IMG/VR virus record: IMGVR_UViG_2654587686_000004
Location: 1 to 11,387 of that record
From: a virus
Taxonomy: Duplodnaviria; Heunggongvirae; Uroviricota; Caudoviricetes
Reading direction: 5' to 3' (one strand)
Length of the DNA stretch: 11,387 nt
Below the pieces are notes generated by a model. It had not been told where the DNA came from and searched no databases. It worked only from the letters and a program-made list of their open reading frames with translations. Shown piece after piece: positions 1-11,387 of the stretch. The position numbers and the translations under genes are program-made. How positions within the stretch are numbered: the first letter of the stretch is position 1; every line of letters begins with the position of its first letter.

Positions 1-2
1 TG

Positions 3-2732
3 ATGGGGCAGTTTGGTGACTCCATCCAGCGAACGCAGGGGGCGATCAAAAATCTCGAGCGTCAGGCGCGATCATTTGAGCGCGCCCGCGACGCTGTCAG
101 TAAAGCGGATGCGGGTATCGTGAAAGCACGACGCCAGCTTAACGCCCTTAATCAGTTACAACGCACGGGTACAGTGCTCAGCGAAAAACAACAAAAGCTG
201 ATGCAGCAGTTAAGCACCCGGCTTGAACGCCTGAATGAATCGCGCACACGGGAAATTCAGAAAATGCGGGAACTTGGCGGAGAGCTAAAACGCCACGGCA
301 TTTCCCTGACAGGTAGCGATAACACCATCCAGCAGGCCATCAGACGCACCGAACAGTACAACAACCAGCTTGAACGCGAACGGCAGGCGCTTGCGCGTGT
401 AACGCGGGCGCGTGAGCGGTATTCGCGCGCGCAGGAAACAGCGGGAAAACTGAAAACAGGTGGTGCGCTGGCAATTGGTGCGGCAGCGGCGGGCGGCTAT
501 GCTGCCGGGCGTTTTTTGCAGCCTGCGATCGGGTTCGGCAAAGAGATGTCCCGCGTTCAGGCACTGACGCGAATCGACCAGAACAGCCCGCAGTTTAAGG
601 CGCTGCGTGAGCAGGCGTTAAAACTTGGCTCTGAAACGCAGTTCACCGCAGGCGATGCCGCCAGTGGACAGGCATTTCTTGCAATGGCTGGCTTCACTCC
701 GCAGGCCATTCAGGCTGCGCTTCCCGGCGTGCTGAGCATGGCAACGGCTGGCGGTATGGATCTCGGCGAGACGGCAGATATTGGCTCAAATATCCTGACG
801 CAGTTCGGCCTTTCTGCTGACCAGATGGACCGGGTCGGTGACACACTCACCGCAGCGTTTACCCGTACCAACACTGACCTTCGCGCACTGGGCGAAACCA
901 TGAAATATGCAGGTCCGGTGGCGGGCAAGCTGGGAATATCGCTGGAGCAGGCCGCAGCGATGGCGGGCGTGCTGGCGAATATGGGTATCAGGGGAAGTGA
1001 TGCCGGGACGGCAATGCGTGCCAGCCTGGCTCGTCTGGCATCACCGCCAAAGGCGGCAGCAGAGGCGCTGAAAGAGCTGGGCGTGTCTGTCTCGGATGCT
1101 GGGGGCAAAATGCGCCCGATGGAGGATGTGCTGGCCGACCTTTATAAAGCCACCCGCAAATACGGGGAAGTTGACCGGGTATCGTTCTTTAAGGACATTG
1201 CCGGAGAAGAGGCTTTCACATCGTTTATGGCGCTCGTTGATGCAGCGGGTGACGGTTCCTTACCCAAACTGAGAAAAGAACTTGAAGGCGCGCGCGGTGA
1301 GGCTGAACGCACAGCAAAGGTTATGGCCAACAACCTTGACGGCGATCTGAAATCACTCGGCAGTGCATGGGAAGGGGTGCGCATCCGCATTGCAGATCTG
1401 ATTGACGGTCCGCTGCGTTCTGTCACGCAGTGGCTCACGCGGGTGGTATCAAGGGTGACGGCGCTGGCGCAGGCCCATCCGGCACTGACGCGCCAGCTAC
1501 TGATAGCAGGCGGTGCGTTGCTGGCAATGACTGCAACGGTTGGCTCGTTGTCGCTGGCTATTGGTGTGCTTGCTGGTCCGCTGGCAAAACTGCGTCTTGG
1601 TTTTTCTCTCCTGACCGGATCAATGAATGCTGTCAGGGTCCTGCCAGCGCTGTGGGGAATGGTGACGGGTTCCGTTTCTTTACTGGGAGGCGCTATCGGG
1701 GCGCTGTTCAGTCCGGTTGGTCTTATCGTGGCTGCGCTTGCCGGAGCTGCCGTTCTTATCTGGAAATACTGGGATCCCATCAGGGCATTTTTTGCCGGGG
1801 TGTTCAGCGGGATTATGGAAAGGCTGACCCCGCTGCGCGAAACCTTTGAACGGTTTGGTCCTGTTTTTGACGCAATCGGAAGCGGGATCAGCCAGGTGTT
1901 TAACTGGTTTAAATCGCTGCTGTCACCGATGGAGTCCAGCAAGGAAACGCTGGATAAATGTACCAGTGCTGGCGAGATATTCGGTAACGTTCTTGGCGGT
2001 GCGTTACAGCTTGTTCTGACACCTGCAAAAATGCTACTGGATACGCTGGCGTGGATACTTGAAAAACTTGGCGTCCTTCCGGATGAAGCGGAAAAGGCGC
2101 GCAAGAAAATCGAAGACGCACAGCGTGCGGCCATTCTTCAGGACAAGGTTGCCTTGCTTCAGGGGGACCTGGCGAAAATCAATCCGCCGAAGCCTGTGGA
2201 AAATGGCAATGGCACCGGAGGTGATAAACCCAAAGACAACAAACCGCTCACAGACAGCAATACCGGGACGCTACGCAGACTCAGCAAAATTGCTGATAAC
2301 ACAGGTAAGCTGGTTGATGAGACGAAAAAACGCATTGGCCCCGGCGATATTGTCTTTAAGAACCTGCCCCGCGCACTGGCTGTTCGTGGGGAGTGGCAGG
2401 AGCGGAAGATTGCGCAGGTCAGTAAGCCTGCCCCCGCAATTAATATCACACCCGTGGTCCCGGCTCCGCTGCCTCCGGCGCTGGTCCCTGTTGTTGCGGC
2501 CAGCTCCCGCCCGGTGGCGGAGGCCATACGATCGCCAGTGGCATCAGTTCCTGCAACTTCCCGTAACCGGGAGCCGGTTGCCTCCGGATTTGGCGGTGAA
2601 ATTCATGTTCATCTGCATAACGTTGTTACACAGAATCCCCGCGAACTGGCGAAACTGGTCGGTGAAATGGTCAGGGCAGAAATGGAACGGCGCGCCCGTG
2701 CCGGGCGTGGCAGTTTTTACGATAAAGATTGA
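3..2732 (+). CDS. Phage tail tape-measure protein (P2 gpT-like), 909 aa
   Basis: Long ORF with a coiled-coil-rich N-terminus, a central core resembling TP901/P2-type tape-measure proteins, a Gly/Ala-rich hydrophobic segment and a Pro-rich C-terminus. ATG at 3-5 overlaps TGA at 1-3, so the start may be genuine and coupled to an upstream gene, but upstream sequence is not visible. Followed directly by a gpU-like gene as in P2. Identity from memory of the family, not searched. Confidence 0.88.
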   Translation: MGQFGDSIQRTQGAIKNLERQARSFERARDAVSKADAGIVKARRQLNALNQLQRTGTVLSEKQQKLMQQLSTRLERLNESRTREIQKMRELGGELKRHGISLTGSDNTIQQAIRRTEQYNNQLERERQALARVTRARERYSRAQETAGKLKTGGALAIGAAAAGGYAAGRFLQPAIGFGKEMSRVQALTRIDQNSPQFKALREQALKLGSETQFTAGDAASGQAFLAMAGFTPQAIQAALPGVLSMATAGGMDLGETADIGSNILTQFGLSADQMDRVGDTLTAAFTRTNTDLRALGETMKYAGPVAGKLGISLEQAAAMAGVLANMGIRGSDAGTAMRASLARLASPPKAAAEALKELGVSVSDAGGKMRPMEDVLADLYKATRKYGEVDRVSFFKDIAGEEAFTSFMALVDAAGDGSLPKLRKELEGARGEAERTAKVMANNLDGDLKSLGSAWEGVRIRIADLIDGPLRSVTQWLTRVVSRVTALAQAHPALTRQLLIAGGALLAMTATVGSLSLAIGVLAGPLAKLRLGFSLLTGSMNAVRVLPALWGMVTGSVSLLGGAIGALFSPVGLIVAALAGAAVLIWKYWDPIRAFFAGVFSGIMERLTPLRETFERFGPVFDAIGSGISQVFNWFKSLLSPMESSKETLDKCTSAGEIFGNVLGGALQLVLTPAKMLLDTLAWILEKLGVLPDEAEKARKKIEDAQRAAILQDKVALLQGDLAKINPPKPVENGNGTGGDKPKDNKPLTDSNTGTLRRLSKIADNTGKLVDETKKRIGPGDIVFKNLPRALAVRGEWQERKIAQVSKPAPAINITPVVPAPLPPALVPVVAASSRPVAEAIRSPVASVPATSRNREPVASGFGGEIHVHLHNVVTQNPRELAKLVGEMVRAEMERRARAGRGSFYDKD

Positions 2733-2744
2733 GGAGTCATGGCC

Positions 2745-3233
2745 ATGATGATGATCTACGGCATGTTTGTTTTTGAGCTGCGCACGCTGCCGCATCAGCA
2801 GTTACAGCAAAACAAAAGCTGGCGGCATGTGAAAAATGAACGCGTTAACCGTTCAGCAAGCTGGCAGTATATCGGTGCAGGAGATGATCGCATCGTTCTT
2901 TCTGGTGTGCTTTATCCTGAAATTACAGGTGGCGAAGTATCGCTGTCGCTGCTGACCACGCAGGCGTATACAGGACGCCCCTGGCCTCTGATTGATGGCG
3001 TCGGGCAGATTTACGGCATGTATGTGCTGACTGAAACGAATACGACCCGTTCCGAGTTTGATCGCTACGGTAAGGCGAAAAAGATAGAATTTTCACTGAC
3101 CCTTGAACGCTGTGATGAGGATTTGCGGGAGCGCCTGCAATCCTCATCGTTCAGTGATATGCTGTCCGGCTTCAAAGATAAGGTGACATCATCTCTTAAC
3201 AGCGCGGCCAGCTCCGTTAAAGGGCTGTTTTGA
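2745..3233 (+). CDS. Phage tail protein, P2 gpU-like
   Basis: ORF 2739..3233; the N-terminus MMMIYGMFVFELRTLPHQ and the internal GVLYPEITGG and WPLIDG motifs resemble P2 gpU. GAGGAG at 2731-2736 is 8 nt upstream of the ATG at 2745, which is the preferred start; the ATG at 2739 is too close to it. Stop TGA at 3231-3233. Confidence 0.85.
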   Translation: MMMIYGMFVFELRTLPHQQLQQNKSWRHVKNERVNRSASWQYIGAGDDRIVLSGVLYPEITGGEVSLSLLTTQAYTGRPWPLIDGVGQIYGMYVLTETNTTRSEFDRYGKAKKIEFSLTLERCDEDLRERLQSSSFSDMLSGFKDKVTSSLNSAASSVKGLF

Positions 3234-3240
3234 TTAACGC

Positions 3241-3270
3241 AAAACCGCTAATGGTCAGATTAGCGGTTTT
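3241..3270. terminator. Bidirectional rho-independent terminator hairpin between convergent gpU and invertase genes
   Basis: Perfect 12-bp inverted repeat AAAACCGCTAAT (3241-3252) / ATTAGCGGTTTT (3259-3270) with a 6-nt loop GGTCAG. T-runs follow the stem on both strands (CATTTTCC on +). The invertase stop codon (3260-3262) lies inside the 3' arm. Confidence 0.7.
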
Positions 3271-3859
3271 CATTTTCCTGAGTCTGCCTGGTTGTTTCTT
3301 CAGCCTGTATATCGCCTACAGGGTGATAACGATAAATCGTCGATATGCCGATGTCGTAAATGATCGCCAGTTGTTTCCTGTCATGACCGTTTTTAATCAG
3401 TCTCGCTATTTGCTCATGTTGTTCTTTTGTCAACTTCGGGCGACGTCCGCCAATGCGTCCTTGTGCGCGTGCTGCTGCCAGCCCGGCCAGTGTACGCTCT
3501 ACAATTAATTCACGTTCCATTTCGGCTAAAGCCCCCATGACGTGAAAAAAGAAACGCCCCATGGGTGTTGATGTGTCAATGCTGTCCGTCAGACTACGGA
3601 AATTAACACCTTTTTCCCGCAATTCCTCAATAAGCGTGATCAGGTGTTTCATACTTCTGCCCAGTCTGTCCAGCTTCCAGACAACCAGCGTATCTCCTTC
3701 TGATAGCGTTCTGAGCAGTTTTTTCAATCCCGGTCTGGCTGATTTCGTTCCGCTGATTTTATCTTCAAAAATCAGTTCACATCCTGCGCAGTTCAGTGCA
3801 TTGCGTTGTAAATCCGTGTTCTGGTCATTTGTTGACACACGAATATAGCCAATTTGCAT
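3260..3859 (-). CDS. Serine DNA invertase, Gin/Hin/Pin/Cin (Din) family
   Basis: Translation from the ATG at 3859-3857 starts MQIGYIRVSTNDQNTDLQRNAL and contains DTLVVWKLDRLGRS, SLTDSIDTSTPMGRFFFHVMGALAEMERELIVERT, GRIGGRRPKLT and a C-terminal helix-turn-helix (GISTIYRY). This is near-identical in motif content to Gin/Hin/Pin as recalled, with the catalytic Ser at residue 9. AAAGAGG lies 9 nt upstream of this ATG. The ORF track extends to 4045 only because there is no upstream in-frame stop. Confidence 0.95.
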   Translation of the reverse strand: MQIGYIRVSTNDQNTDLQRNALNCAGCELIFEDKISGTKSARPGLKKLLRTLSEGDTLVVWKLDRLGRSMKHLITLIEELREKGVNFRSLTDSIDTSTPMGRFFFHVMGALAEMERELIVERTLAGLAAARAQGRIGGRRPKLTKEQHEQIARLIKNGHDRKQLAIIYDIGISTIYRYHPVGDIQAEETTRQTQENENR

Positions 3860-3912
3860 AAAAAACATCCTCTTTGTTTCGTGAAAAATACATAGTTGGT
3901 ATAGGTAGGGAT

Positions 3913-3938
3913 AAAACGAAAACGTTGGTTTGGGGGAA
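3913..3938 (-). repeat. Invertase crossover site s1 (hix/gix-like, 26 bp), inverted relative to s2-s6
   Basis: Reverse complement reads TTCCCCCAAACC-AA-CGTTTTCGTTTT: a 12-bp left half identical to the other five sites, central AA dinucleotide, and imperfect right half. Resembles hixL (TTCTTGAAAACCAAGGTTTTTGATAA, from memory). Lies 53 bp upstream of the invertase start. Confidence 0.75.
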
Positions 3939-4388
3939 GGCTCTGCACTGCCCGTTGGCGTGCCCGTTCCGTGGCCTTCAGCAACACCGCCAACGGGGTG
4001 GCTGAAATGTAACGGCGCAGCATTTTCTTCTGAAATGTACCCCAATCTGGCAAAGGCTTACCCAACGTTAAAATTACCTGATTTACGCGGTGAGTTTATC
4101 CGTGGTTGGGATGATGGGCGCGGGGTGGATGCGGGAAGGGGCATCTTAAGCATACAGGGGTGGTTAACAGGAAGTCATTATCATAATATTCGGTCATGGG
4201 ACGCGTGGGATAACACGGTACTGGTGCCAAATGACAAAGGAGGGGATAGTCTGTTGTCGACAGATAACGCCGTCCGGCAAGGTGCAATTAACGGTAGATT
4301 TACCAGTCAATACAGAACGGAATCCTCAGTGGGGAATGAAACCCGCCCACGCAATATTGCCTTCAATTATATTGTGAGAACCGCATAA
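3930..4388 (+). CDS. Silent alternative tail-fibre C-terminal cassette A (collar-like receptor-binding tip); no ATG start
   Basis: Begins inside s1 with GLGEGSALPVGVPVPWPSATPPTGWLKCNGAAFSSEMYP...LPDLRGEFIRGWDDGRG and ends ETRPRNIAFNYIVRTA. An in-frame TAA lies 6 codons upstream and there is no ATG or ribosome-binding site; the tracked start is a TTG. Same architecture as the expressed H C-terminus. Confidence 0.8.
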   Translation: MGEGSALPVGVPVPWPSATPPTGWLKCNGAAFSSEMYPNLAKAYPTLKLPDLRGEFIRGWDDGRGVDAGRGILSIQGWLTGSHYHNIRSWDAWDNTVLVPNDKGGDSLLSTDNAVRQGAINGRFTSQYRTESSVGNETRPRNIAFNYIVRTA

Positions 4389-4999
4389 TGAATAACGCGA
4401 TATTAAATGATGACCTTATTGCCGTACAGGCAGGAAACATCGTCGTTTATAACTATGATGGTGAGACACGGGAATATATTTCCGAATCAACTGAATATCT
4501 TGCTGCGGGTGTCGGTATTCCGGCAAATTCCTGTTTAGATGCCCCGGGCGCACATAAAGCGGGCTATGCTATCCGCCGTTCGGAGAATTTAAATTCATGG
4601 GAGTATACGCCAGATCATCGTGGTGAAACCGTCTATAGCACTGACACGGGAAACACCGAAGAAATCACGACGCTGGGTGACTACCCGAAAAATACAACCA
4701 CTATCGCCCCGTTAACACCATACGATAAATGGGATGGTGAAAAATGGGTGACAGATACTGAGGCACAACATGGTGCCGCAGTAGAAGCGGCAGAAACCAA
4801 GCGCCAGTCACTGGCTGATGCGGCAATGGCTTCCATAAGTCTGATTCAGTTGAAGTTGCAGGCCGGGCGGAAGTTGACGCAGGCAGAAACCACCCGGCTT
4901 AACGCCGTGCTGGATTATATAGACGCACTGAACGCAATGGATATAAACATGGCACCAGATATCAACCGGCCGGAAATACCACTGGCAGCAGCCAGTTGA
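4388..4999 (+). CDS. Tail-fibre assembly chaperone (Tfa; lambda Tfa / Mu U / P2 G family)
   Basis: ATG overlaps the cassette A stop (TAATG). Sequence blocks GIPANS, DHRGETVY, KWDGEKWV, TDTEAQ, ETKRQSL and the C-terminal PDINRPEIP parallel lambda Tfa (LPANS, DHRGKTVY, KWNGTAWV, PDIEWPAVP) as recalled. Confidence 0.88.
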   Translation: MNNAILNDDLIAVQAGNIVVYNYDGETREYISESTEYLAAGVGIPANSCLDAPGAHKAGYAIRRSENLNSWEYTPDHRGETVYSTDTGNTEEITTLGDYPKNTTTIAPLTPYDKWDGEKWVTDTEAQHGAAVEAAETKRQSLADAAMASISLIQLKLQAGRKLTQAETTRLNAVLDYIDALNAMDINMAPDINRPEIPLAAAS

Positions 5000-5005
5000 A
5001 TATAA

Positions 5006-5482
5006 CTAAGCCGCCCTCACGATATAGTTAAATGCAATATTGCGGGGGCGGGTTTCACTACCACCTGTGTTACCAATACTTCCTCGTGAATGAAGCGTTG
5101 GTGATGGAATCAAACTCCCTCCTGTATTTGTGGCATCAAGCCCCCTGCCTTGTGTATATGTTTTTTTGAAAATCGTGGCCAACTCCCATTCATCCTTTGT
5201 GTCATATCCATCGTTAGCTACAACAATATGGCGGTGTTTTTCCAACATCCCGGTTTGAATGCTCAATAAAGCGCGTGCTGCATCAATTCCTCGCCCATCA
5301 TCCCAGCCGCGAATAAATTCGCCCCGTAAATCCGGTAATTTATTGGCGGGGTAGGCTTTTGCCAGTTTGGGGTAATCTTCAGAAGAAAATGCTGCACCGT
5401 TACATTTCAGCCAGCCCGTTGGTGGTGTTGCTAAGGGCCACGGAACGGGCACGCCAACGGGCAGTGCAGAGCCTTCCCCCAA
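5006..5482 (-). CDS. Silent alternative tail-fibre C-terminal cassette B; no ATG start
   Basis: Conserved 70-aa N-terminus (GEGSALPVGVPVPWP...RGWDDGRGIDAAR), unique core and conserved C-terminus SETRPRNIAFNYIVRAA. Starts inside crossover site s2. Its 3' end converges on tfa with only 6 bp between the stops. Confidence 0.8.
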   Translation of the reverse strand: MGEGSALPVGVPVPWPLATPPTGWLKCNGAAFSSEDYPKLAKAYPANKLPDLRGEFIRGWDDGRGIDAARALLSIQTGMLEKHRHIVVANDGYDTKDEWELATIFKKTYTQGRGLDATNTGGSLIPSPTLHSRGSIGNTGGSETRPRNIAFNYIVRAA

Positions 5483-5499
5483 ACCAACGTTTTCATACT
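5474..5499 (+). repeat. Invertase crossover site s2 (26 bp)
   Basis: TTCCCCCAAACC-AA-CGTTTTCATACT. The left half is the first codons (GLGE) of cassette B; the right half contains the stop codon of cassette C. Confidence 0.75.
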
Positions 5500-5999
5500 G
5501 CCCTTACGATATAATTAAAGGCAATGTTACGAGGACGGTTTTCGTTTGCAGTTGGAACAATTCTTGAAGCATCAAGGCCAATCACTTTTGGGTAAACAGA
5601 GCCATCTGTTCTTTCTATCACCATACTTCTGATTAAGGAGAAATAACTATTGTTCGTTGAGGGGTTCAAAGGCACCACTGCCCCCTTAAATGAGTCTACT
5701 GATTCCCATATTGAATAATTTTCGGTGTTTACAGTCTTGAACTCACCATAGATATTACGTATGGCATCGCCCTGAGCGGATAATATTGCTCTCCCCGCAT
5801 CCACACCACGCCCATCATCCCAGCCACGGATAAATTCACCGCGTAAATCCGGTAATTTATTGGTGGGGTAGGCTTTTGCCAGATTGGGGTACATTTCAGA
5901 AGAAAATGCTGCACCGTTACATTTCAGCCACCCCGTTGGCGGCGTGGCTGAGGGCCATGGAACGGGCACACCAACGGGCAGCGCAGAGCCTTCCCCCAA
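5493..5999 (-). CDS. Silent alternative tail-fibre C-terminal cassette C; no ATG start
   Basis: Conserved N-terminal block, unique core, C-terminus ENRPRNIAFNYIVRAV. Starts within s3; stop lies within s2. Confidence 0.8.
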   Translation of the reverse strand: MGEGSALPVGVPVPWPSATPPTGWLKCNGAAFSSEMYPNLAKAYPTNKLPDLRGEFIRGWDDGRGVDAGRAILSAQGDAIRNIYGEFKTVNTENYSIWESVDSFKGAVVPLNPSTNNSYFSLIRSMVIERTDGSVYPKVIGLDASRIVPTANENRPRNIAFNYIVRAV

Positions 6000-6016
6000 A
6001 CCAACGTTTTCATGCT
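5991..6016 (+). repeat. Invertase crossover site s3 (26 bp)
   Basis: TTCCCCCAAACC-AA-CGTTTTCATGCT. Same half-site and core as s2; overlaps the cassette D stop (TGA, 6010-6012) and the cassette C first codons. Confidence 0.75.
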
Positions 6017-6438
6017 GCCCTTACGATGTAATTAAACGCAATATTACGAGGACGAATGGTTACATAATTAACCCCATCACCTCGTGAAGGCCCTGCAAAT
6101 GAAAAACGGGAAAAGCCTGGTTGGTTAGAAACAATTTGGTCATAGTTATTGATTGAATGACCAGACCCAATGTCGAAATTACCTCCGTAATGAGAAAAAC
6201 TTGTACCATCCTGCCCTGAAAGCAGGGTACGTCCCGCATCAATCCCGCGCCCATCATCCCAGCCACGGATAAATTCACCGCGTAAATCCGGTAATTTATT
6301 GGTGGGATAAGCCCTTGCCAGTCTGGGATACATTTCAGAAGAAAATGCTGCACCGTTACATTTCAGCCAGCCCGTTGGTGGTGTTGCTGAGGACCACGGA
6401 ACGGGCACACCAACGGGCAGTGCAGAGCCTTCCCCCAA
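6010..6438 (-). CDS. Silent alternative tail-fibre C-terminal cassette D; no ATG start
   Basis: Conserved N-terminal block (one substitution, PWSSAT), unique core, C-terminus TIRPRNIAFNYIVRAA. Confidence 0.8.
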   Translation of the reverse strand: MGEGSALPVGVPVPWSSATPPTGWLKCNGAAFSSEMYPRLARAYPTNKLPDLRGEFIRGWDDGRGIDAGRTLLSGQDGTSFSHYGGNFDIGSGHSINNYDQIVSNQPGFSRFSFAGPSRGDGVNYVTIRPRNIAFNYIVRAA

Positions 6439-6455
6439 ACCAACGTTTTCATGCG
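6430..6455 (+). repeat. Invertase crossover site s4 (26 bp)
   Basis: TTCCCCCAAACC-AA-CGTTTTCATGCG. Confidence 0.75.
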
Positions 6456-6982
6456 GCTCTTACGATGTAATTGAATGCAACGTTGCGGGGGCGTGTTTCT
6501 GCTGTGCCGACAATACTGGTACTCAGTCCTGTCGCTGTTCGTTTGTTATTTTTATTCCCTTCGATAAGACAGTTGTAATCGTCATTACCAATTAACGAGT
6601 TGGTGGCATCAATACTGTCCGGGGACAAGGCATTAGTTGTGGAACTTAAAGTCAGCATCTCGTCTGAACTTGGAAGATTTTTTAATGGTGTTTCATTACG
6701 TGAAATACCCGCATAAAAAAAGGACTCATGCCTGTGCGCTTCAAAGGAGTCATCCTGAAGACTTAGCAAGGCACGCCCAGCATCCAAGCCACGTCCATCA
6801 TCCCAGCCACGGATAAATTCACCCCGTAGATCCGGTAATTTATTCGCGGGGTAAGCCTGTGCCAGTTTGGGGTAATCTTCAGAAGAAAATGCTGCGCCGT
6901 TACATTTCAGCCAGCCCGTTGGCGGTGTAGCTGAGGGCCACGGAACGGGTACACCAACGGGCAACGCAGAGCCTTCCCCCAA
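6449..6982 (-). CDS. Silent alternative tail-fibre C-terminal cassette E; no ATG start
   Basis: Conserved N-terminal block, the longest unique core (about 90 aa), C-terminus AETRPRNVAFNYIVRAA. Confidence 0.8.
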   Translation of the reverse strand: MGEGSALPVGVPVPWPSATPPTGWLKCNGAAFSSEDYPKLAQAYPANKLPDLRGEFIRGWDDGRGLDAGRALLSLQDDSFEAHRHESFFYAGISRNETPLKNLPSSDEMLTLSSTTNALSPDSIDATNSLIGNDDYNCLIEGNKNNKRTATGLSTSIVGTAETRPRNVAFNYIVRAA

Positions 6983-6999
6983 ACCAACGTTTTCATGCG
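6974..6999 (+). repeat. Invertase crossover site s5 (26 bp)
   Basis: TTCCCCCAAACC-AA-CGTTTTCATGCG; overlaps the stop codon of H (TGA, 6993-6995) and the first codons of cassette E. Confidence 0.75.
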
Positions 7000-8633
7000 G
7001 CTCTTACGATGTAATTGAATGCAACGTTGCGAGGGCGAGTTTCTGTACCTACATTTCCACTAATTTCACCAAACCGTTTTACATTACGAGAGCTAATGGC
7101 TCGTAGTGAGGAAGGCACCTTTAAACCGGGTTCGTCTGTTTTAACTATTCCCCCGTCCCCGTATGTAGCCAGTATTCCAGGGTTTACTCCTTCCCGTGCA
7201 CTTCCCGCGGCAAGTCCGCCCCCGGTCCATAATTCCATATAGTGTGCATGATCCAAAATTGTGTGTGGCTGCCAATTAAGCAAAGCGCGACCAGCATCCA
7301 CCCCGCGCCCATCATCCCAGCCGCGAATAAATTCTCCCCGTAAATCCGGTAATTTATTGGCGGGGTAGGCTTTTGCCAGTTTGGGGTACATTTCAGAAGA
7401 AAATGCTGCGCCGTTACATTTCAACCACCCCGCTGGCAGCGTGGCTGAGGGCCATGGAACGGCCACACCAACAGGCAGCGCAGAGCCTTCCCCCAAACCA
7501 AGGTAATCAAGAACTCCCTGAGTGCTGGTTTTGCCAAGAATGGCACGTCCAACACTTGTCAACGCGGTTAACGCGGCACGATCTGCCCCTGTAAAATATG
7601 GGAGTTTATCTGCTGATGTGGCAAGCTCCGCCAGCGCCGTCAGGGTGGCATCCTTCGGTTGCTTACCCGCAAGCGCGTTAGTCATGGTGGTCGCAAAATT
7701 CGGGTCATTGCCCAGCGCCGCAGCCAGTTCGTCCAGCGTGTTCAGTGCATCAGGTGACGAATCTACAAGTGCGGCAATCGCGGCCATAACGAAAGCCGTG
7801 CTTGCGATCTGGGTACTATTAGTCCCCTGTGCCGCCGTTGGTGTTGTTGGCGTTCCGGTCAGTGCCGGGCTGTTTAATGGTGCTTTCTTGTTCGTTTCAT
7901 CCATTACCGCCTTAACAGCTTTTGGTGTCGCTGCCAGCGTTTCAGACGTGCTGTTCGTGGCGCTACTGAGCTGAACAATCCCTTTTTGTGTAGTGGTGGC
8001 GTTCTGGGCGGTATATTTCCCGTTAGCCAGGTCATATGCAGCCTTAACCGCTTTCGGTGTTGCGGCCAGTGTTTCTGATTCACTGTTAATTGCACTGCTT
8101 AACTGAGTAAAACCTTTTACGGTCAGCGAGGCGTCCGGGTGACGTCGTGACTGTTCGTGCTCTGAGATTTTATCATCCACATATTTGCGGGTTGCCAGAA
8201 CCACAGACGGGTCGATTTTCAGCGTGATGGCTTCGGTGTTCGTGACAACCAGAATCATGCGGATAGTCTGGGTGCGTCCACTGCCTTCCTGCAACTGCGG
8301 TTTGTACGTTTCCGGGCAGTTTGCCACCGCAATAAGTACGCCTTCATCATCATAAAGACCAATCTCACGGATCCAGAATCCTCCCTCGTTTTCAGGGATG
8401 ATTTGTTCCGCAATAATCTGGCTCTGATTGTTAGGGTCAACACTCAGAAGATTCAGCGGTGCAATGCGTTTCTGGTTAATCAGTTTTGTTTGTGCAGGGT
8501 CTGGTGTTGGTAACACACCATTTGCATCACCAACGGCCATTTGCGTCAGATTCAGCTTACTGCCGAGCATCGTCGCGTTAGCCAGTCGTGCCGCGCCCTG
8601 ATTAGTCAGAATGGCGTAGTATTTCACTGTCAT
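6993..8633 (-). CDS. Tail-fibre protein (P2 gpH-like constant N-terminus fused to expressed C-terminal cassette F)
   Basis: 546-aa ORF whose ATG overlaps the gpI stop (ATGA). The N-terminal ~160 aa (MAVGDANG, GGFWIREIGLYDDEGVLIAVAN, KPQLQEGSGRTQT) resemble P2 gpH. Residues ~381-546, downstream of crossover site s6, have the same collar-like cassette architecture as the five silent cassettes and end ETRPRNVAFNYIVRAA. Confidence 0.93.
   Translation of the reverse strand: MTVKYYAILTNQGAARLANATMLGSKLNLTQMAVGDANGVLPTPDPAQTKLINQKRIAPLNLLSVDPNNQSQIIAEQIIPENEGGFWIREIGLYDDEGVLIAVANCPETYKPQLQEGSGRTQTIRMILVVTNTEAITLKIDPSVVLATRKYVDDKISEHEQSRRHPDASLTVKGFTQLSSAINSESETLAATPKAVKAAYDLANGKYTAQNATTTQKGIVQLSSATNSTSETLAATPKAVKAVMDETNKKAPLNSPALTGTPTTPTAAQGTNSTQIASTAFVMAAIAALVDSSPDALNTLDELAAALGNDPNFATTMTNALAGKQPKDATLTALAELATSADKLPYFTGADRAALTALTSVGRAILGKTSTQGVLDYLGLGEGSALPVGVAVPWPSATLPAGWLKCNGAAFSSEMYPKLAKAYPANKLPDLRGEFIRGWDDGRGVDAGRALLNWQPHTILDHAHYMELWTGGGLAAGSAREGVNPGILATYGDGGIVKTDEPGLKVPSSLRAISSRNVKRFGEISGNVGTETRPRNVAFNYIVRAA
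7488..7513 (+). repeat. Invertase crossover site s6 at the H constant/variable junction
   Basis: TTCCCCCAAACC-AA-GGTAATCAAGAA. The left half is identical to s1-s5 and the core is AA; the right half is the diverged H constant-region sequence (codons for VLDY). Any cassette joined here gives the same in-frame YLGLGEGS junction. Confidence 0.75.
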
Positions 8634-9238
8634 GCGTTTACTCTCAGATTATCAATTAAATGAATGGCCGGGGCAGGGAAATAATCCCCTTCGACAATAA
8701 TGGACTCCGGGGTGTAGGGATAAACCGTCAGGGCATCGCCGTGATAGCATCCCGTACCAACGAAAATCTTTCCGTTCACACTCAGGCTGATCGCCAGCCC
8801 CGTCAGATGGCGACTTACTGGTTTTGCATCCGCAATAAGGCGCTCAAGTTCCTGATACATTTCATCGGTGATGCCCTGATCAAGTACTCCGACAACAATG
8901 CGAAATGTTCCTGGCTCCTCGTTGAGTTGCCACCACTCCTTTACTTCAATCAGGTAGCCGAGAGGCTCCACGGCTCTTCGCAGTGCGCTGATGGTCCCTT
9001 TGTGTCGGTGTATCAGCCATGCATCACGAATTACCTGTCGCTTTGTCTCTTCCGGCCAGTTGCGATCCCAGCGGTCAACGGAAAACGCCCAGGCGAGATA
9101 AGGCAGCAGATGCACCGGGCAGGTATCCGGCGACCACAGCGTATTGAGGTCTACCGGAATGTCTGTAATGCGTGTTCCGACGGCTTCGGCACAACGCATG
9201 AAACTGCTGGCTGATGGTGGTAACAACGAATTACTCAT
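8630..9238 (-). CDS. Baseplate/tail protein, P2 gpI-like
   Basis: From the ATG at 9238-9236 the protein reads MSNSLLPP...NTLWSPDTCPVHLLPYLAWAFSVDRWD...RLIADAKPVSRHL, resembling P2 gpI. This ATG overlaps the last codon and stop of gpJ (ATGAGTAA); the tracked ORF start at 9271 would overlap gpJ by 41 nt and is less likely. The stop overlaps the H start. Confidence 0.85.
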   Translation of the reverse strand: MSNSLLPPSASSFMRCAEAVGTRITDIPVDLNTLWSPDTCPVHLLPYLAWAFSVDRWDRNWPEETKRQVIRDAWLIHRHKGTISALRRAVEPLGYLIEVKEWWQLNEEPGTFRIVVGVLDQGITDEMYQELERLIADAKPVSRHLTGLAISLSVNGKIFVGTGCYHGDALTVYPYTPESIIVEGDYFPAPAIHLIDNLRVNA

Positions 9239-10127
9239 TGCGTCCACCTTCGCTGATGGTGAATGACTCACAGCGCGCCGCCTGTATGTCGCTGATGGCC
9301 ATATTCTGTGTGGGTTCGATTATCTCCACGCGTTGCACGCCGTGCACATGCAGTGCGGCAGCAATGGCGGACAACGCCACGTCCTGACCGATAAGCCCCT
9401 GTTCAGCCAGCCACTTCCTGAATGACGATTCCGCCGCGGCCAGAATAGGTTCGGATTCCGGACCGGGGTAAAAGTACAGTTTTGCATTCAGCCGCCATGT
9501 CACGATTCTGGCGCTCTGTACGGTCAGGCGGTCGGCCACCGGGCGGGTATCCTCTGCATTCAGAACGGCGCGAACGGTATTAAGCAACGCCTCCGTTGCA
9601 GTGCCGTCGCCCTCAGTGGACAGGATGGAAAGCGTCACACAGGCCGGAGACGGGCTGATGGCCCGCGCATCACGCACCAGACCGCTGGCGCTGCGTGCAA
9701 AATACTCGTATGCGCCTGACGGGCCTGCAACACTCAGGCCGTCATACGCCCGTTGCGCCCGTAGTCTCAGCGAGGTGTCGCTCTCCATCACCGCGTCGGT
9801 GGTATCCGTTGCCGGAGTGATAACCAGGCGCTTTGTGTTCATATTGCCCGCGAGGTTGTCCAGGTTTGTCCCTGAACCGTGGCTTAACATACAGGCGCGT
9901 GCGCCCTCATTGACCCGCTGGCGTAACAGCATTTCACGAAACGACATGGTTTGAGCGATAACGTTAAGGGGTTCCGATTCCAGCTCCAGCGCGGCGGAAA
10001 CGGCTTCACGCTGTTCGGCGGGATAGGACGCAATCATCATGGCCTTTGTGTCAGCCAGAATTGCCTCAAAATCAGGCTCCGCGATGATGGCGGGTTCCGG
10101 TAACTGGGAAAGGTCAACAGCAGGCAT
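9231..10127 (-). CDS. Baseplate assembly protein, P2 gpJ-like (baseplate J family)
   Basis: 298 aa, MPAVDLSQLPEP..., with blocks (RQRVNEGARA, YDGLSVAGPSGAYEY, SPSPACVTLSILS, RPVADRLTVQSA, LHVHGVQRVEI) resembling P2 gpJ. ATG is 3 nt after the gpW stop. Confidence 0.9.
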   Translation of the reverse strand: MPAVDLSQLPEPAIIAEPDFEAILADTKAMMIASYPAEQREAVSAALELESEPLNVIAQTMSFREMLLRQRVNEGARACMLSHGSGTNLDNLAGNMNTKRLVITPATDTTDAVMESDTSLRLRAQRAYDGLSVAGPSGAYEYFARSASGLVRDARAISPSPACVTLSILSTEGDGTATEALLNTVRAVLNAEDTRPVADRLTVQSARIVTWRLNAKLYFYPGPESEPILAAAESSFRKWLAEQGLIGQDVALSAIAAALHVHGVQRVEIIEPTQNMAISDIQAARCESFTISEGGRNE

Positions 10128-10130
10128 GAT

Positions 10131-10481
10131 TTACTCTCTCAGCGTGATGGTTAATTCAACATTCTGCATGGTCTGCATGACAGTGCCCGACAGCGTCACC
10201 CCGGCGCGGCCTCCTGCCTTCCAGACAACGTCGATAGCGTCCAGGGCAATGCGGGGTTCCCATCGCGTCAGTGCAATCACGGCAGCACTCATGCATTGCA
10301 GACGCGTGGTGTTATTCATGGGTTCGTCAATCAAATCAGGCACAAGGCTGCCATATTCCCGTCGCATAACCCGGCTTGCCAGCGGGGTGGTCAGGATGTC
10401 CCTGACTGACTGTTTCAGGTGCTCCATATCGTTCAGGTTTCCCGTTCCGTCCGGGTTCATTCCTGTGTAGCGGGTTGTCAC
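10131..10481 (-). CDS. Baseplate wedge protein, P2 gpW-like (GPW/gp25 family)
   Basis: 116 aa, MTTRYTGMNPDG...SRVMRREYGS...LTRWEPRI, resembling P2 gpW. The start codon is GTG (10481-10479) overlapping the gpV stop (GTGA). Confidence 0.85.
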   Translation of the reverse strand: MTTRYTGMNPDGTGNLNDMEHLKQSVRDILTTPLASRVMRREYGSLVPDLIDEPMNNTTRLQCMSAAVIALTRWEPRIALDAIDVVWKAGGRAGVTLSGTVMQTMQNVELTITLRE

Positions 10482-11059
10482 TGCGGGCCTCCTGTCGAAT
10501 CGCTGCCACCTTTAACGCCACCGTGTTTATGCGTATGCACGGTAATGCCGTTTGAGGTGAAATTGCCGCCGCTGTGCGTGATATTGCCGCTCATCTTTCC
10601 CCCTTTTGTGACGTCAAGCGTCGCCGTTCTCAGAAGGTCTGTGCATTCCACGACGGGCGTATCCAGTGTCACGCTGACGGATGCCTGCAGGGTGGCTGTT
10701 TTCATGCCGCTGGCGCTCAGTGCGCCTGCGTCCGCGTCGTAGCGGAACACCGCGCCATCCGGCGCGCTGACCACGATTTCTTTCAGGCTTTTGCCGGGGG
10801 CCGGAATGGCATCACTCCACAGGCTGCCAATTATCATGGCGGTTTCCGGGTTGCCGCCAATGCAGGCAATTGCCACCTGTTCGCCTGGTGATGGCGGCAG
10901 CCACACATTGAAGGCTCCCGCGCGCGTGGTGTTCCAGCGCAACCAGCCTGTTTCCAGTTCGCCGCTGCGAACGCGCACGCGCCAGGACTTCTCATCAACT
11001 TCAGAGATGATCCCGGTGCGGATGATATTGCTCAGTAGCCGCATGAGTTCTGCGCTCAC
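10478..11059 (-). CDS. Baseplate spike/hub protein, P2 gpV-like
   Basis: 193 aa with IRTGII, WLRW, PSPGEQV, a Gly-rich middle and the C-terminal GITVHTHKH, resembling P2 gpV. GTG start overlaps the gpS stop (GTGA). Confidence 0.88.
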   Translation of the reverse strand: MSAELMRLLSNIIRTGIISEVDEKSWRVRVRSGELETGWLRWNTTRAGAFNVWLPPSPGEQVAIACIGGNPETAMIIGSLWSDAIPAPGKSLKEIVVSAPDGAVFRYDADAGALSASGMKTATLQASVSVTLDTPVVECTDLLRTATLDVTKGGKMSGNITHSGGNFTSNGITVHTHKHGGVKGGSDSTGGPQ

Positions 11060-11387
11060 CGTACAGCCTCCGCAATCCGGCCCAGCACCGTGTTATAAAT
11101 CAGGCGCTCATCTGCCTGGCTGATACCCAGCAGCTCACGTACCGGGTAATCGGTGAAAATGCCCGGCGCAACCTGATCGCGCTCACCGAACTGATGAACG
11201 CGTGCAATACGTGCGGCCACGCCGCTGTAACCCACCGTCACACCGGAAGCATCTGCACGGGCTTTCAGGTAGCGGGCGGTGCGCAGTTTTGCGAACATGG
11301 GGACGCGCTTTGTGCTGTCCTGGTTGATGCGCCGGGTGCGTATTTCCAGAAAACGGTCGATGTCATCCCGGTAAAACGTGCGGATAT
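11056..11387 (-). CDS. Tail completion protein, P2 gpS-like; 5'-truncated by window end
   Basis: The reading frame is open from the window edge (11387) to the stop at 11056-11058; the ATG at 11298 used by the ORF track is internal. Position immediately upstream of gpV and the C-terminal sequence are consistent with P2 gpS; family assignment is less certain than for the others. Confidence 0.65.
   Translation of the reverse strand, partial: IRTFYRDDIDRFLEIRTRRINQDSTKRVPMFAKLRTARYLKARADASGVTVGYSGVAARIARVHQFGERDQVAPGIFTDYPVRELLGISQADERLIYNTVLGRIAEAVR

Follow-up and report, generated by a model that had tools for sequence, protein, structure and literature searches.

One tail-fibre assembly gene beside six invertible collar-type tips in a P2-like prophage of Escherichia coli: a candidate chaperone for a whole class of tips

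The fibre switches of the Mu G, P1 C and e14 P segments have two crossover sites, two alternative tips and a tfa gene of its own for each tip. The invertible locus described here raises the question of how a single tail-fibre assembly gene, tfa, can go with six tips. It lies on an 11,387-nt stretch of DNA (IMG/VR virus record IMGVR_UViG_2654587686_000004, positions 1 to 11,387, hereafter the window), which is part of a P2-like prophage of E. coli and carries a fibre switch between the tail-fibre gene H and a convergent tail operon (Table 1). As in the three switches named above, which use the invertases Gin, Cin and Pin, a site of the 26-bp type marks the junction of constant and variable parts and tfa lies directly downstream of a tip, but here six sites and six tip cassettes (A to F, the last currently fused to H) are accompanied by one tfa, which is located behind cassette A. 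With slightly better than even confidence, and on the strength of sequence comparison, we propose that this single Tfa would recognise the collar scaffold of the tips and serve all of them, acting in trans on cassettes B to F, which would need it.

All six cassettes match the Pfam family Collar (1e-12 to 5e-15), have no start codon of their own and follow one plan, in which a common collar segment leads into a variable stretch and the C-terminus, ...RPRN(I/V)AFNYIVR, is conserved. The tip now joined to H matches gp37 of phage T4 (2XGF, 5e-18), with which the tips have the collar segment, the HxH motif and the C-terminal NIAFNYIVR in common; gp12 chains are matched as well, and the matches to 2XGF and gp12 span both cassette ends. 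By these matches the cassettes are classified as gp37/gp12-type collar tips, in which a variable insert is predicted to separate the N-terminal segment of the collar from its C-terminal strand. Tfa itself belongs to Caudo_TAP (PF02413, 3.3e-31, residues 78–198 against positions 1–130 of the 131 in the profile) and matches PHROG 105, "tail fiber assembly", over its full length (5e-91); a search of the PDB with its sequence gave no significant match.

Loci for comparison were fetched with Tfa or cassette C as query. Full-length relatives of Tfa (36–82% identical) were found in Escherichia, Shigella, Kluyvera, Photorhabdus, Pantoea, Erwinia, Mixta and Citrobacter, and they always lie directly 3' of a collar cassette, also in phages that have no invertase. 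Cassette C was used as query in order to avoid the bias of a search seeded with tfa, and in about 75 of the 80 loci that it retrieved, a Tfa of this type follows right after a collar tip. The exceptions comprise two truncations at contig ends, a locus with IS1 (L161), an ambiguous case (L170) and one real tfa-less case (L162). In L161 (8503–9200), a prophage otherwise like P88, IS1 lies right after the collar cassette, at the place expected for tfa.

Loci with two tips reveal what the pairing depends on, as the collar tip goes with a Tfa of 200 residues and the non-collar tip with a different one of 147 residues, which aligns at residues ~119–200 only, i.e., within the C-terminal domain. Tfa is thus modular, its C-terminal domain being conserved while the N-terminal one varies with the type of tip, which fits the published model of a variable N-domain that binds the fibre end and a conserved C-domain that oligomerises (North et al., 2019, summarised in PMC9608196). 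At the same time, N-domains of Tfa that are 95–100% identical follow tips whose variable regions are only 14–33% identical (L089 and L105, for example, have 100% identical N-domains behind tips with 27% identity). The tips of the window are themselves found with this Tfa type elsewhere: the variable region of B lies directly 5' of it in simpler loci, and directly upstream of tfa we find the variable regions of C (L122, L126, L127, L130) and E (L172, L181, L185, L195) and the F tip (L072, L077, L078, L090), all at 91–100% identity. For cassette D, the locus sample yielded no case of a Tfa directly behind it. These comparisons show that the Tfa subfamily goes with the tip class, whatever the variable region. 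The cassettes that lack a tfa are not decaying: 111 of 118 are intact, and their variable parts are under purifying selection (ratios of nonsynonymous to synonymous substitution rates, dN/dS, of 0.03–0.34). Cassette B is the most constrained (0.03) and is present and intact in essentially every locus.

We therefore turn to an explanation that would run as follows. An invertase of the Hin/Gin family would recombine the six crossover sites and thereby join the constant part of H to any of the six tips. Tfa would be the chaperone for this class of tips and not for cassette A alone, with its variable N-domain matching the common scaffold, namely the N-terminal collar segment plus the C-terminal ...RPRN(I/V)AFNYIVR strand, and because that scaffold is common to all six cassettes one gene could serve every tip. 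The earlier note on this DNA had left a choice between collar tips that fold without a dedicated chaperone and a Tfa made in trans from its own promoter that recognises a shared feature. The former is disfavoured by the almost constant presence of Tfa beside collar tips, by the Tfa genes downstream of B, C, E and F tips elsewhere and by the homology to gp37. The latter gains indirect support from the pairing by class and from the same N-domains behind unrelated tips, but its promoter did not hold up, as discussed below.

Several observations weigh against a Tfa that serves the whole class. A metagenomic P2-like contig (L162, 6517–8864) encodes a collar-tipped H of 328 residues followed by the tail-sheath gene, with no tfa, and we know of no Tfa-type chaperone for T4 gp12, which is a collar protein too. 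Part of the purifying selection on B to F may stem from a past in other loci, in which a Tfa gene lay directly behind them. No conserved sigma-70-like or Ogr-type promoter was found upstream of tfa on its own strand. Read-through from the convergent FI–U tail operon is not a general route either, because a hairpin terminator would block it and because P1-like carriers of the module lack such an operon; in them, that side is occupied by holin genes that read in the direction of the invertase gene. A stronger independent Shine-Dalgarno (SD) sequence for tfa in multi-cassette loci was looked for and the opposite was found, with GAGA here and the stronger GAGG in single-tip loci. Together with the overlap of start and stop codons, this weaker sequence points to translation that is coupled to cassette A rather than to independent expression.

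These features could be accommodated if Tfa were a chaperone for cassette A only, made in the H-A state and left over from a two-tip ancestor, with B to F folding on host chaperones or alone. The translational coupling and weak SD of tfa, the lack of a promoter found for it and the collar-tipped H of L162 would then be expected, and the variable region of cassette A indeed occurs in multi-cassette loci only and always beside tfa. We nevertheless regard this as unlikely, since this Tfa type follows directly on B, C, E and F tips in other phages, identical N-domains stand behind unrelated tips, about 75 of 80 loci combine a collar tip with Tfa, and cassette A does not differ from the other five in collar scaffold or C-terminus. 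Both a Tfa restricted to A and chaperone-free collar tips thus appear to be the less likely readings.

A peculiarity of the cassette ends may be mentioned here. The arginine of the C-terminal IVR is encoded by a rare AGA or AGG codon in all six cassettes (4371–4388, 5006–5025, 5493–5510, 6010–6027, 6449–6466 and 6993–7010), and wherever tfa follows, the resulting GTGAGR or GTAAGR is its SD-like sequence. The retention of this sequence in the cassettes without tfa fits a descent from tfa-linked tips.

How often tfa is available to a given tip depends on the arrangement of the crossover sites. The 20-mer AACGTTGGTTTGGGGGAAGG occurs in six copies in the window, versus 0.01 expected by chance; one copy (cassette A) is on the plus strand and five (B, C, D, E and H/F) are on the minus strand, with two mismatches in the copy inside H. 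The full sites (~26 bp, two imperfect half-sites) end in TT-GGTTTGGGGGAA and are present in inverted orientation, and the H half-site TTCTTGATTACC resembles hixL. Each site opens a repeat of ~250 nt coding for one common N-terminal collar segment. Scanning the window with the 20-mer gave no copy between 3940 and 5472, so that tfa cannot be separated from the variable parts of A and B; within this single segment, tfa and cassette B are convergent with stop codons 6 nt apart. The ATG of tfa overlaps the stop codon of cassette A (TAATG), and the identical overlap is found in all related loci. As the H reading frame on the minus strand ends in cassette F, tfa on the plus strand is antisense to H in the present state.

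The description in the earlier note of one tfa for six cassettes, locked between A and the 3' end of B and antisense to the H operon with cassette F expressed, is borne out by these results, as six Collar cassettes and no second tfa-like open reading frame (ORF) were found in the window. It had also raised the possibility of further tfa genes outside; a complete related prophage, that of E. coli EC9 (L125, NZ_CP060950.1, 714–747 kb), has no second annotated tfa. Its statement that tfa can only follow cassette A in cis stands in so far as tfa always lies directly after A, but the gene also occurs co-oriented farther downstream of other fusions (H-X...A-tfa, with tfa sense and distal, in L056, L060, L063 and L205). 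The geometry denies a sense tfa to cassette B only.

The invertase fits the Hin/Gin/Cin/Pin/Min (Din) type, a small serine recombinase with a C-terminal helix-turn-helix (HTH) domain; its gene is the last one in the direction of H and lies outside the invertible DNA. With more than two sites, overlapping invertible segments are bounded, each of them with an alternative 3' end of H, and the locus is a further Din-family multiple-inversion fibre switch, a known kind. Its six-site prototype is reportedly the Min system of the P1-related plasmid p15B, said to have been described by Sandmeier, Iida and Arber in 1990–1992, with a serine invertase beside overlapping invertible segments, six crossover sites and one fibre gene, all of which is found here too. 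The module of the window differs in its place: it belongs to a P2/P88-like prophage of the chromosome and is flanked by H and a convergent tail operon.

The layout is widespread. The A-tfa-B unit, counted at a coverage of at least 80%, is present both chromosomally and on plasmids, in 162 of 5,426 complete E. coli genomes. It is also carried by P1-like IncY plasmids, in which the invertase gene, the fixed interval next to it and A-tfa-B have 86–93% DNA identity. Exactly one full-length tfa was found in 24 of the 26 loci with 3–9 cassettes (multi-cassette being defined as at least three full collar cassettes), the others being L048 with a duplicated unit and L064 with a frameshifted tfa. One chaperone gene is the rule for the multi-cassette module. 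The two A-tfa-B units of L048 (5635–9167) are 100% identical and in opposite orientation (H> D> B> <tfa <A A> tfa> <B), so that one tfa would always be sense; this double unit could equally be an assembly artefact of mixed isomers. Tips also outnumber chaperones in P2-like loci of Photorhabdus (L011, L013, L019 and L024, at ~6400–8600), where H with its collar tip is followed by a second, tandem collar cassette and a single tfa, and where the invertase gene lies ~5 kb upstream, before gpI.

Different isomers are found among the sequenced loci. Cassette A with tfa is fused to H in L045, L049, L053, L058 and L070, and cassette B in L046, L055, L153 and E. coli ETEC6335; in further loci tfa is sense but distal, or antisense. 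The prophage of ETEC6335 (L206, NZ_CP122588.1, 3175715–3187805) is near-identical to ours and has the same six cassettes in a different order (inv, C> D> E> F> A> tfa> <B-H), with C, D, E and F flipped to the invertase side. Its invertase gene is 100% identical at the DNA level, its tfa has 1 mismatch in 612 nt, and five of the six cassettes match ours at 100% in the variable part; the constant part of its H is longer (a gene of 1,878 nt), apparently due to another number of fibre repeats. Since isomers exist among near-identical elements, the switch appears to be active in nature, and for a related prophage, that of enteropathogenic E. coli (EPEC) E2348/69, inversion has been shown by PCR (PMC4272514). 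The record of the P1-like phage vB_EcoM-673R5, which was tried as a readout of a virion-derived configuration, is fragmented in the fibre region.

Alternatively, all tips might need Tfa while the protein is made only if A-tfa is co-oriented with H, so that about half of the isomers, including every H-B, would be fibre-defective. We judge this quite unlikely, and give the same low weight to the corollary that such isomers are the tolerated cost of a bet-hedging switch grown by unequal recombination among the 250-nt repeats. It would agree with the convergent transcription and with the lack of a tfa promoter and of a terminator, and sense and antisense tfa are about equally common among the sequenced isomers (~9 versus 11), as would be expected without selection in lysogens; the range of 3–9 cassettes further implies that arrays readily expand and contract. 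Cassette B, however, could then never work, yet it is intact nearly everywhere, has the lowest dN/dS and is fused to H in four loci.

If, as we prefer, one Tfa serves every tip, it has to be made in more than one arrangement. With A-tfa co-oriented with H, tfa could be expressed from the H operon, translationally coupled in H-A or distal in H-X...A-tfa; with tfa inverted, weak transcription from the invertase side might occur, or catalytic amounts might suffice. From the sequence, a clear expression route is apparent in the H-A state only, and a less certain one when tfa is distal but sense. Only tentatively, and with less than even confidence, do we suggest a hub design in which a class-wide tfa is expressed in either orientation, from an unrecognised promoter in the A-tfa unit or the invertase-proximal interval, or acts catalytically, and serves in trans any number of shuffled gp37-like tips.

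The candidates for such a promoter were examined one by one. The rightward tfa promoter suggested in the earlier note is correctly located (TTGTTT at 3874–3879, TGGTATAGG at 3897–3905, spacer of 20), but it scores 2.95 bits with a position weight matrix (PWM), a value reached or exceeded by 1,083 hexamer combinations in the window, and it was rejected. The conservation of the fixed interval, which is ~89% between P2-like and P1-like multi-cassette loci, is explained more simply by an overlapping leftward promoter of the invertase gene and its 5' untranslated region, for which the PWM scan gave a candidate facing the invertase (TTATCC-18-TATTTT, 3914 to 3885). A consensus scan found one promoter-like hit on the plus strand, CTGGCA-16-TAAAAT inside cassette A (4047–4074), which is also the best plus-strand PWM hit; it was dismissed as a designed tfa promoter for being polymorphic, occurring in 7 of 23 tfa-adjacent cassettes and 11 of 95 others. 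An element embedded in cassette A, sought by low synonymous diversity, was not found either, as the whole variable region of A is evenly conserved with no local signal.

The only TGT-N12-ACA dyad of the 11.4-kb window is located in the 61-bp fixed interval (3875–3892, TGTTTCGTGAAAAATACA). It is retained in the P1-like carriers as TGTTTAGTTAAAAATACA, overlaps the putative -10 element of the invertase promoter and could be an operator. A role as Ogr-type late promoter is not supported, as no -10-like hexamer lies ~45 bp from its centre in either direction, and a leftward Ogr reading would start within the invertase gene. A strong promoter-like motif, TTCAGA-17-TACATT, was observed in the conserved collar segment of every cassette, antisense to the coding strand (4006–4034 on the minus strand; 5378–5406, 5895–5923, 6334–6362, 6878–6906 and 7392–7420 on the plus strand). 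Its copies rank among the ten best PWM scores of the window, and that of the invertase-adjacent cassette always faces the invertase gene, so that the motif could drive the invertase gene whichever cassette takes that position. Of the 129 cassettes in multi-cassette loci, 93 have both hexamers intact, as against 16 of 134 elsewhere, a difference that may reflect mere relatedness.

Simpler relatives are the two-tip switches of P88, Xuanwuvirus and related phages (e.g., L090), in which the backbone and the order of genes are those seen here and gpU converges on the invertase gene. There the collar tip is followed by the 200-residue Tfa, 73–80% identical to that of the window, the second, non-collar tip has its own 147-residue Tfa, and no extra cassettes are present. 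In the P2-like prophage shufflon of EPEC E2348/69 (Goldberg et al., 2014, PMC4272514), whose genome matches the module of the window at 95.6%, and in Enterobacter phage FR-phi, whose three-isoform fibre shufflon with gin has been dissected (PMC13418256), all fibre variants have been demonstrated side by side in culture. Both systems use a gin-type recombinase and comprise three inverted repeats or three isoforms; they have fewer cassettes than the present one, and the chaperone question was not addressed in either paper (PMC4272514, PMC13418256). Many alternative C-termini are likewise shuffled onto one constant gene in the R64 shufflon (pilV), which differs in its tyrosine recombinase (Rci), its pilus adhesin target and the lack of a chaperone.

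Phage T4 has a single tip and no inversion, and its gp38, for which lambda Tfa can substitute, lies outside the Caudo_TAP family. Folding of T4 gp37 requires gp38 and gp57A, separate chaperones that work in trans and are not part of the virion (PMC9608196). In Mu and Ur-lambda, on the other hand, Tfa has been reported in mature virions (PMC9608196), and it might be argued that the Tfa of the window remains attached to the H-A fibre, as a structural component of the tip or as an adhesin, and adds specificity, with translational coupling supplying it 1:1 with H-A. This we consider very improbable, as one N-domain behind many tips fits a scaffold-binding chaperone better than a determinant of specificity.

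Fibre tips and their chaperones are usually treated as fixed pairs, both in phage biology and in the retargeting of phages and tailocins. Arrays of 3–9 tips repeatedly built round one chaperone gene, and the same N-domain behind unrelated tips, suggest that one Tfa can service a whole class of gp37-like tips. If this is true, the engineering of multi-host phages and tailocins would become simpler, and the growth of the arrays by simple repeat recombination would be explained. If the hub design also holds, Tfa would recognise the conserved collar scaffold and not the receptor-binding part, and host-range libraries could grow by bare, chaperone-less tips.

Table 1. Features of the 11,387-nt window (coordinates from its first nucleotide).
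Feature	Position	Strand	Basis or remark
Tape-measure gene, 3' part	3-2732	+	ORF
gpU	2739-3233	+	Pfam Phage_P2_GpU 5.5e-39
Hairpin between gpU and invertase, T-runs on both strands	3241-3270		12-bp stem, -15.8 kcal/mol
Serine DNA invertase, Hin/Gin/Min type, 199 aa	3260-3859	-	Pfam Resolvase 1e-46, HTH_7 1e-12; PHROG 125 "DNA invertase" 1e-98
Fixed interval, invertase start codon to first crossover site	3860-3920		holds invertase SD
Crossover site, cassette A	3921-3940	+	only plus-strand copy
Cassette A, collar-type gp37-like tip	3930-4388	+	Pfam Collar 4.7e-15; PHROG "tail collar fiber protein"
tfa, tail-fibre assembly chaperone gene, 203 aa	4388-4999	+	Pfam Caudo_TAP, PHROG 105
Cassette B, collar tip, convergent with tfa	5006-5482	-	Pfam Collar
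Crossover site, cassette B	5472-5491	-	site scan
Cassette C, collar tip	5493-5999	-	Pfam Collar
Crossover site, cassette C	5989-6008	-	site scan
Cassette D, collar tip	6010-6438	-	Pfam Collar
Crossover site, cassette D	6428-6447	-	site scan
Cassette E, collar tip	6449-6982	-	Pfam Collar
Crossover site, cassette E	6972-6991	-	site scan
Tail-fibre gene H, intact 546-aa ORF	6993-8633	-	Pfam Phage_tail_fib, Phage_fiber_2, Collar
H constant part (8633 to ~7506) and fused cassette F (7496-6993)	6993-8633	-	current isomer H-F
Crossover site inside H, TACCTTGGTTTGGGGGAAGG	7486-7505	-	site scan
Baseplate genes V, W, J, I, then H		-	ORFs/profiles

The hairpin behind gpU is likely a bidirectional terminator that parts the convergent tail operon from the switch. 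The surroundings can be judged from the EC9 prophage, which is otherwise P2-like but has the tail block FI-FII-E-T-U inverted relative to P2, converging on the H operon with the switch in between, the same arrangement as in phage P88 and Xuanwuvirus. Its gpD and ogr are located on the far side, beside a com/mom-like methyltransferase pair and a hok/gef gene. Finally, ORFs of ~51 codons are repeated on the plus strand of the window (5359–5514, 5876–6031 and 6315–6470), antisense across the collar segment and the crossover sites, with a related one of 73 codons at 7373–7594 on the same strand; they are most likely by-products of the collar repeat and not genes.

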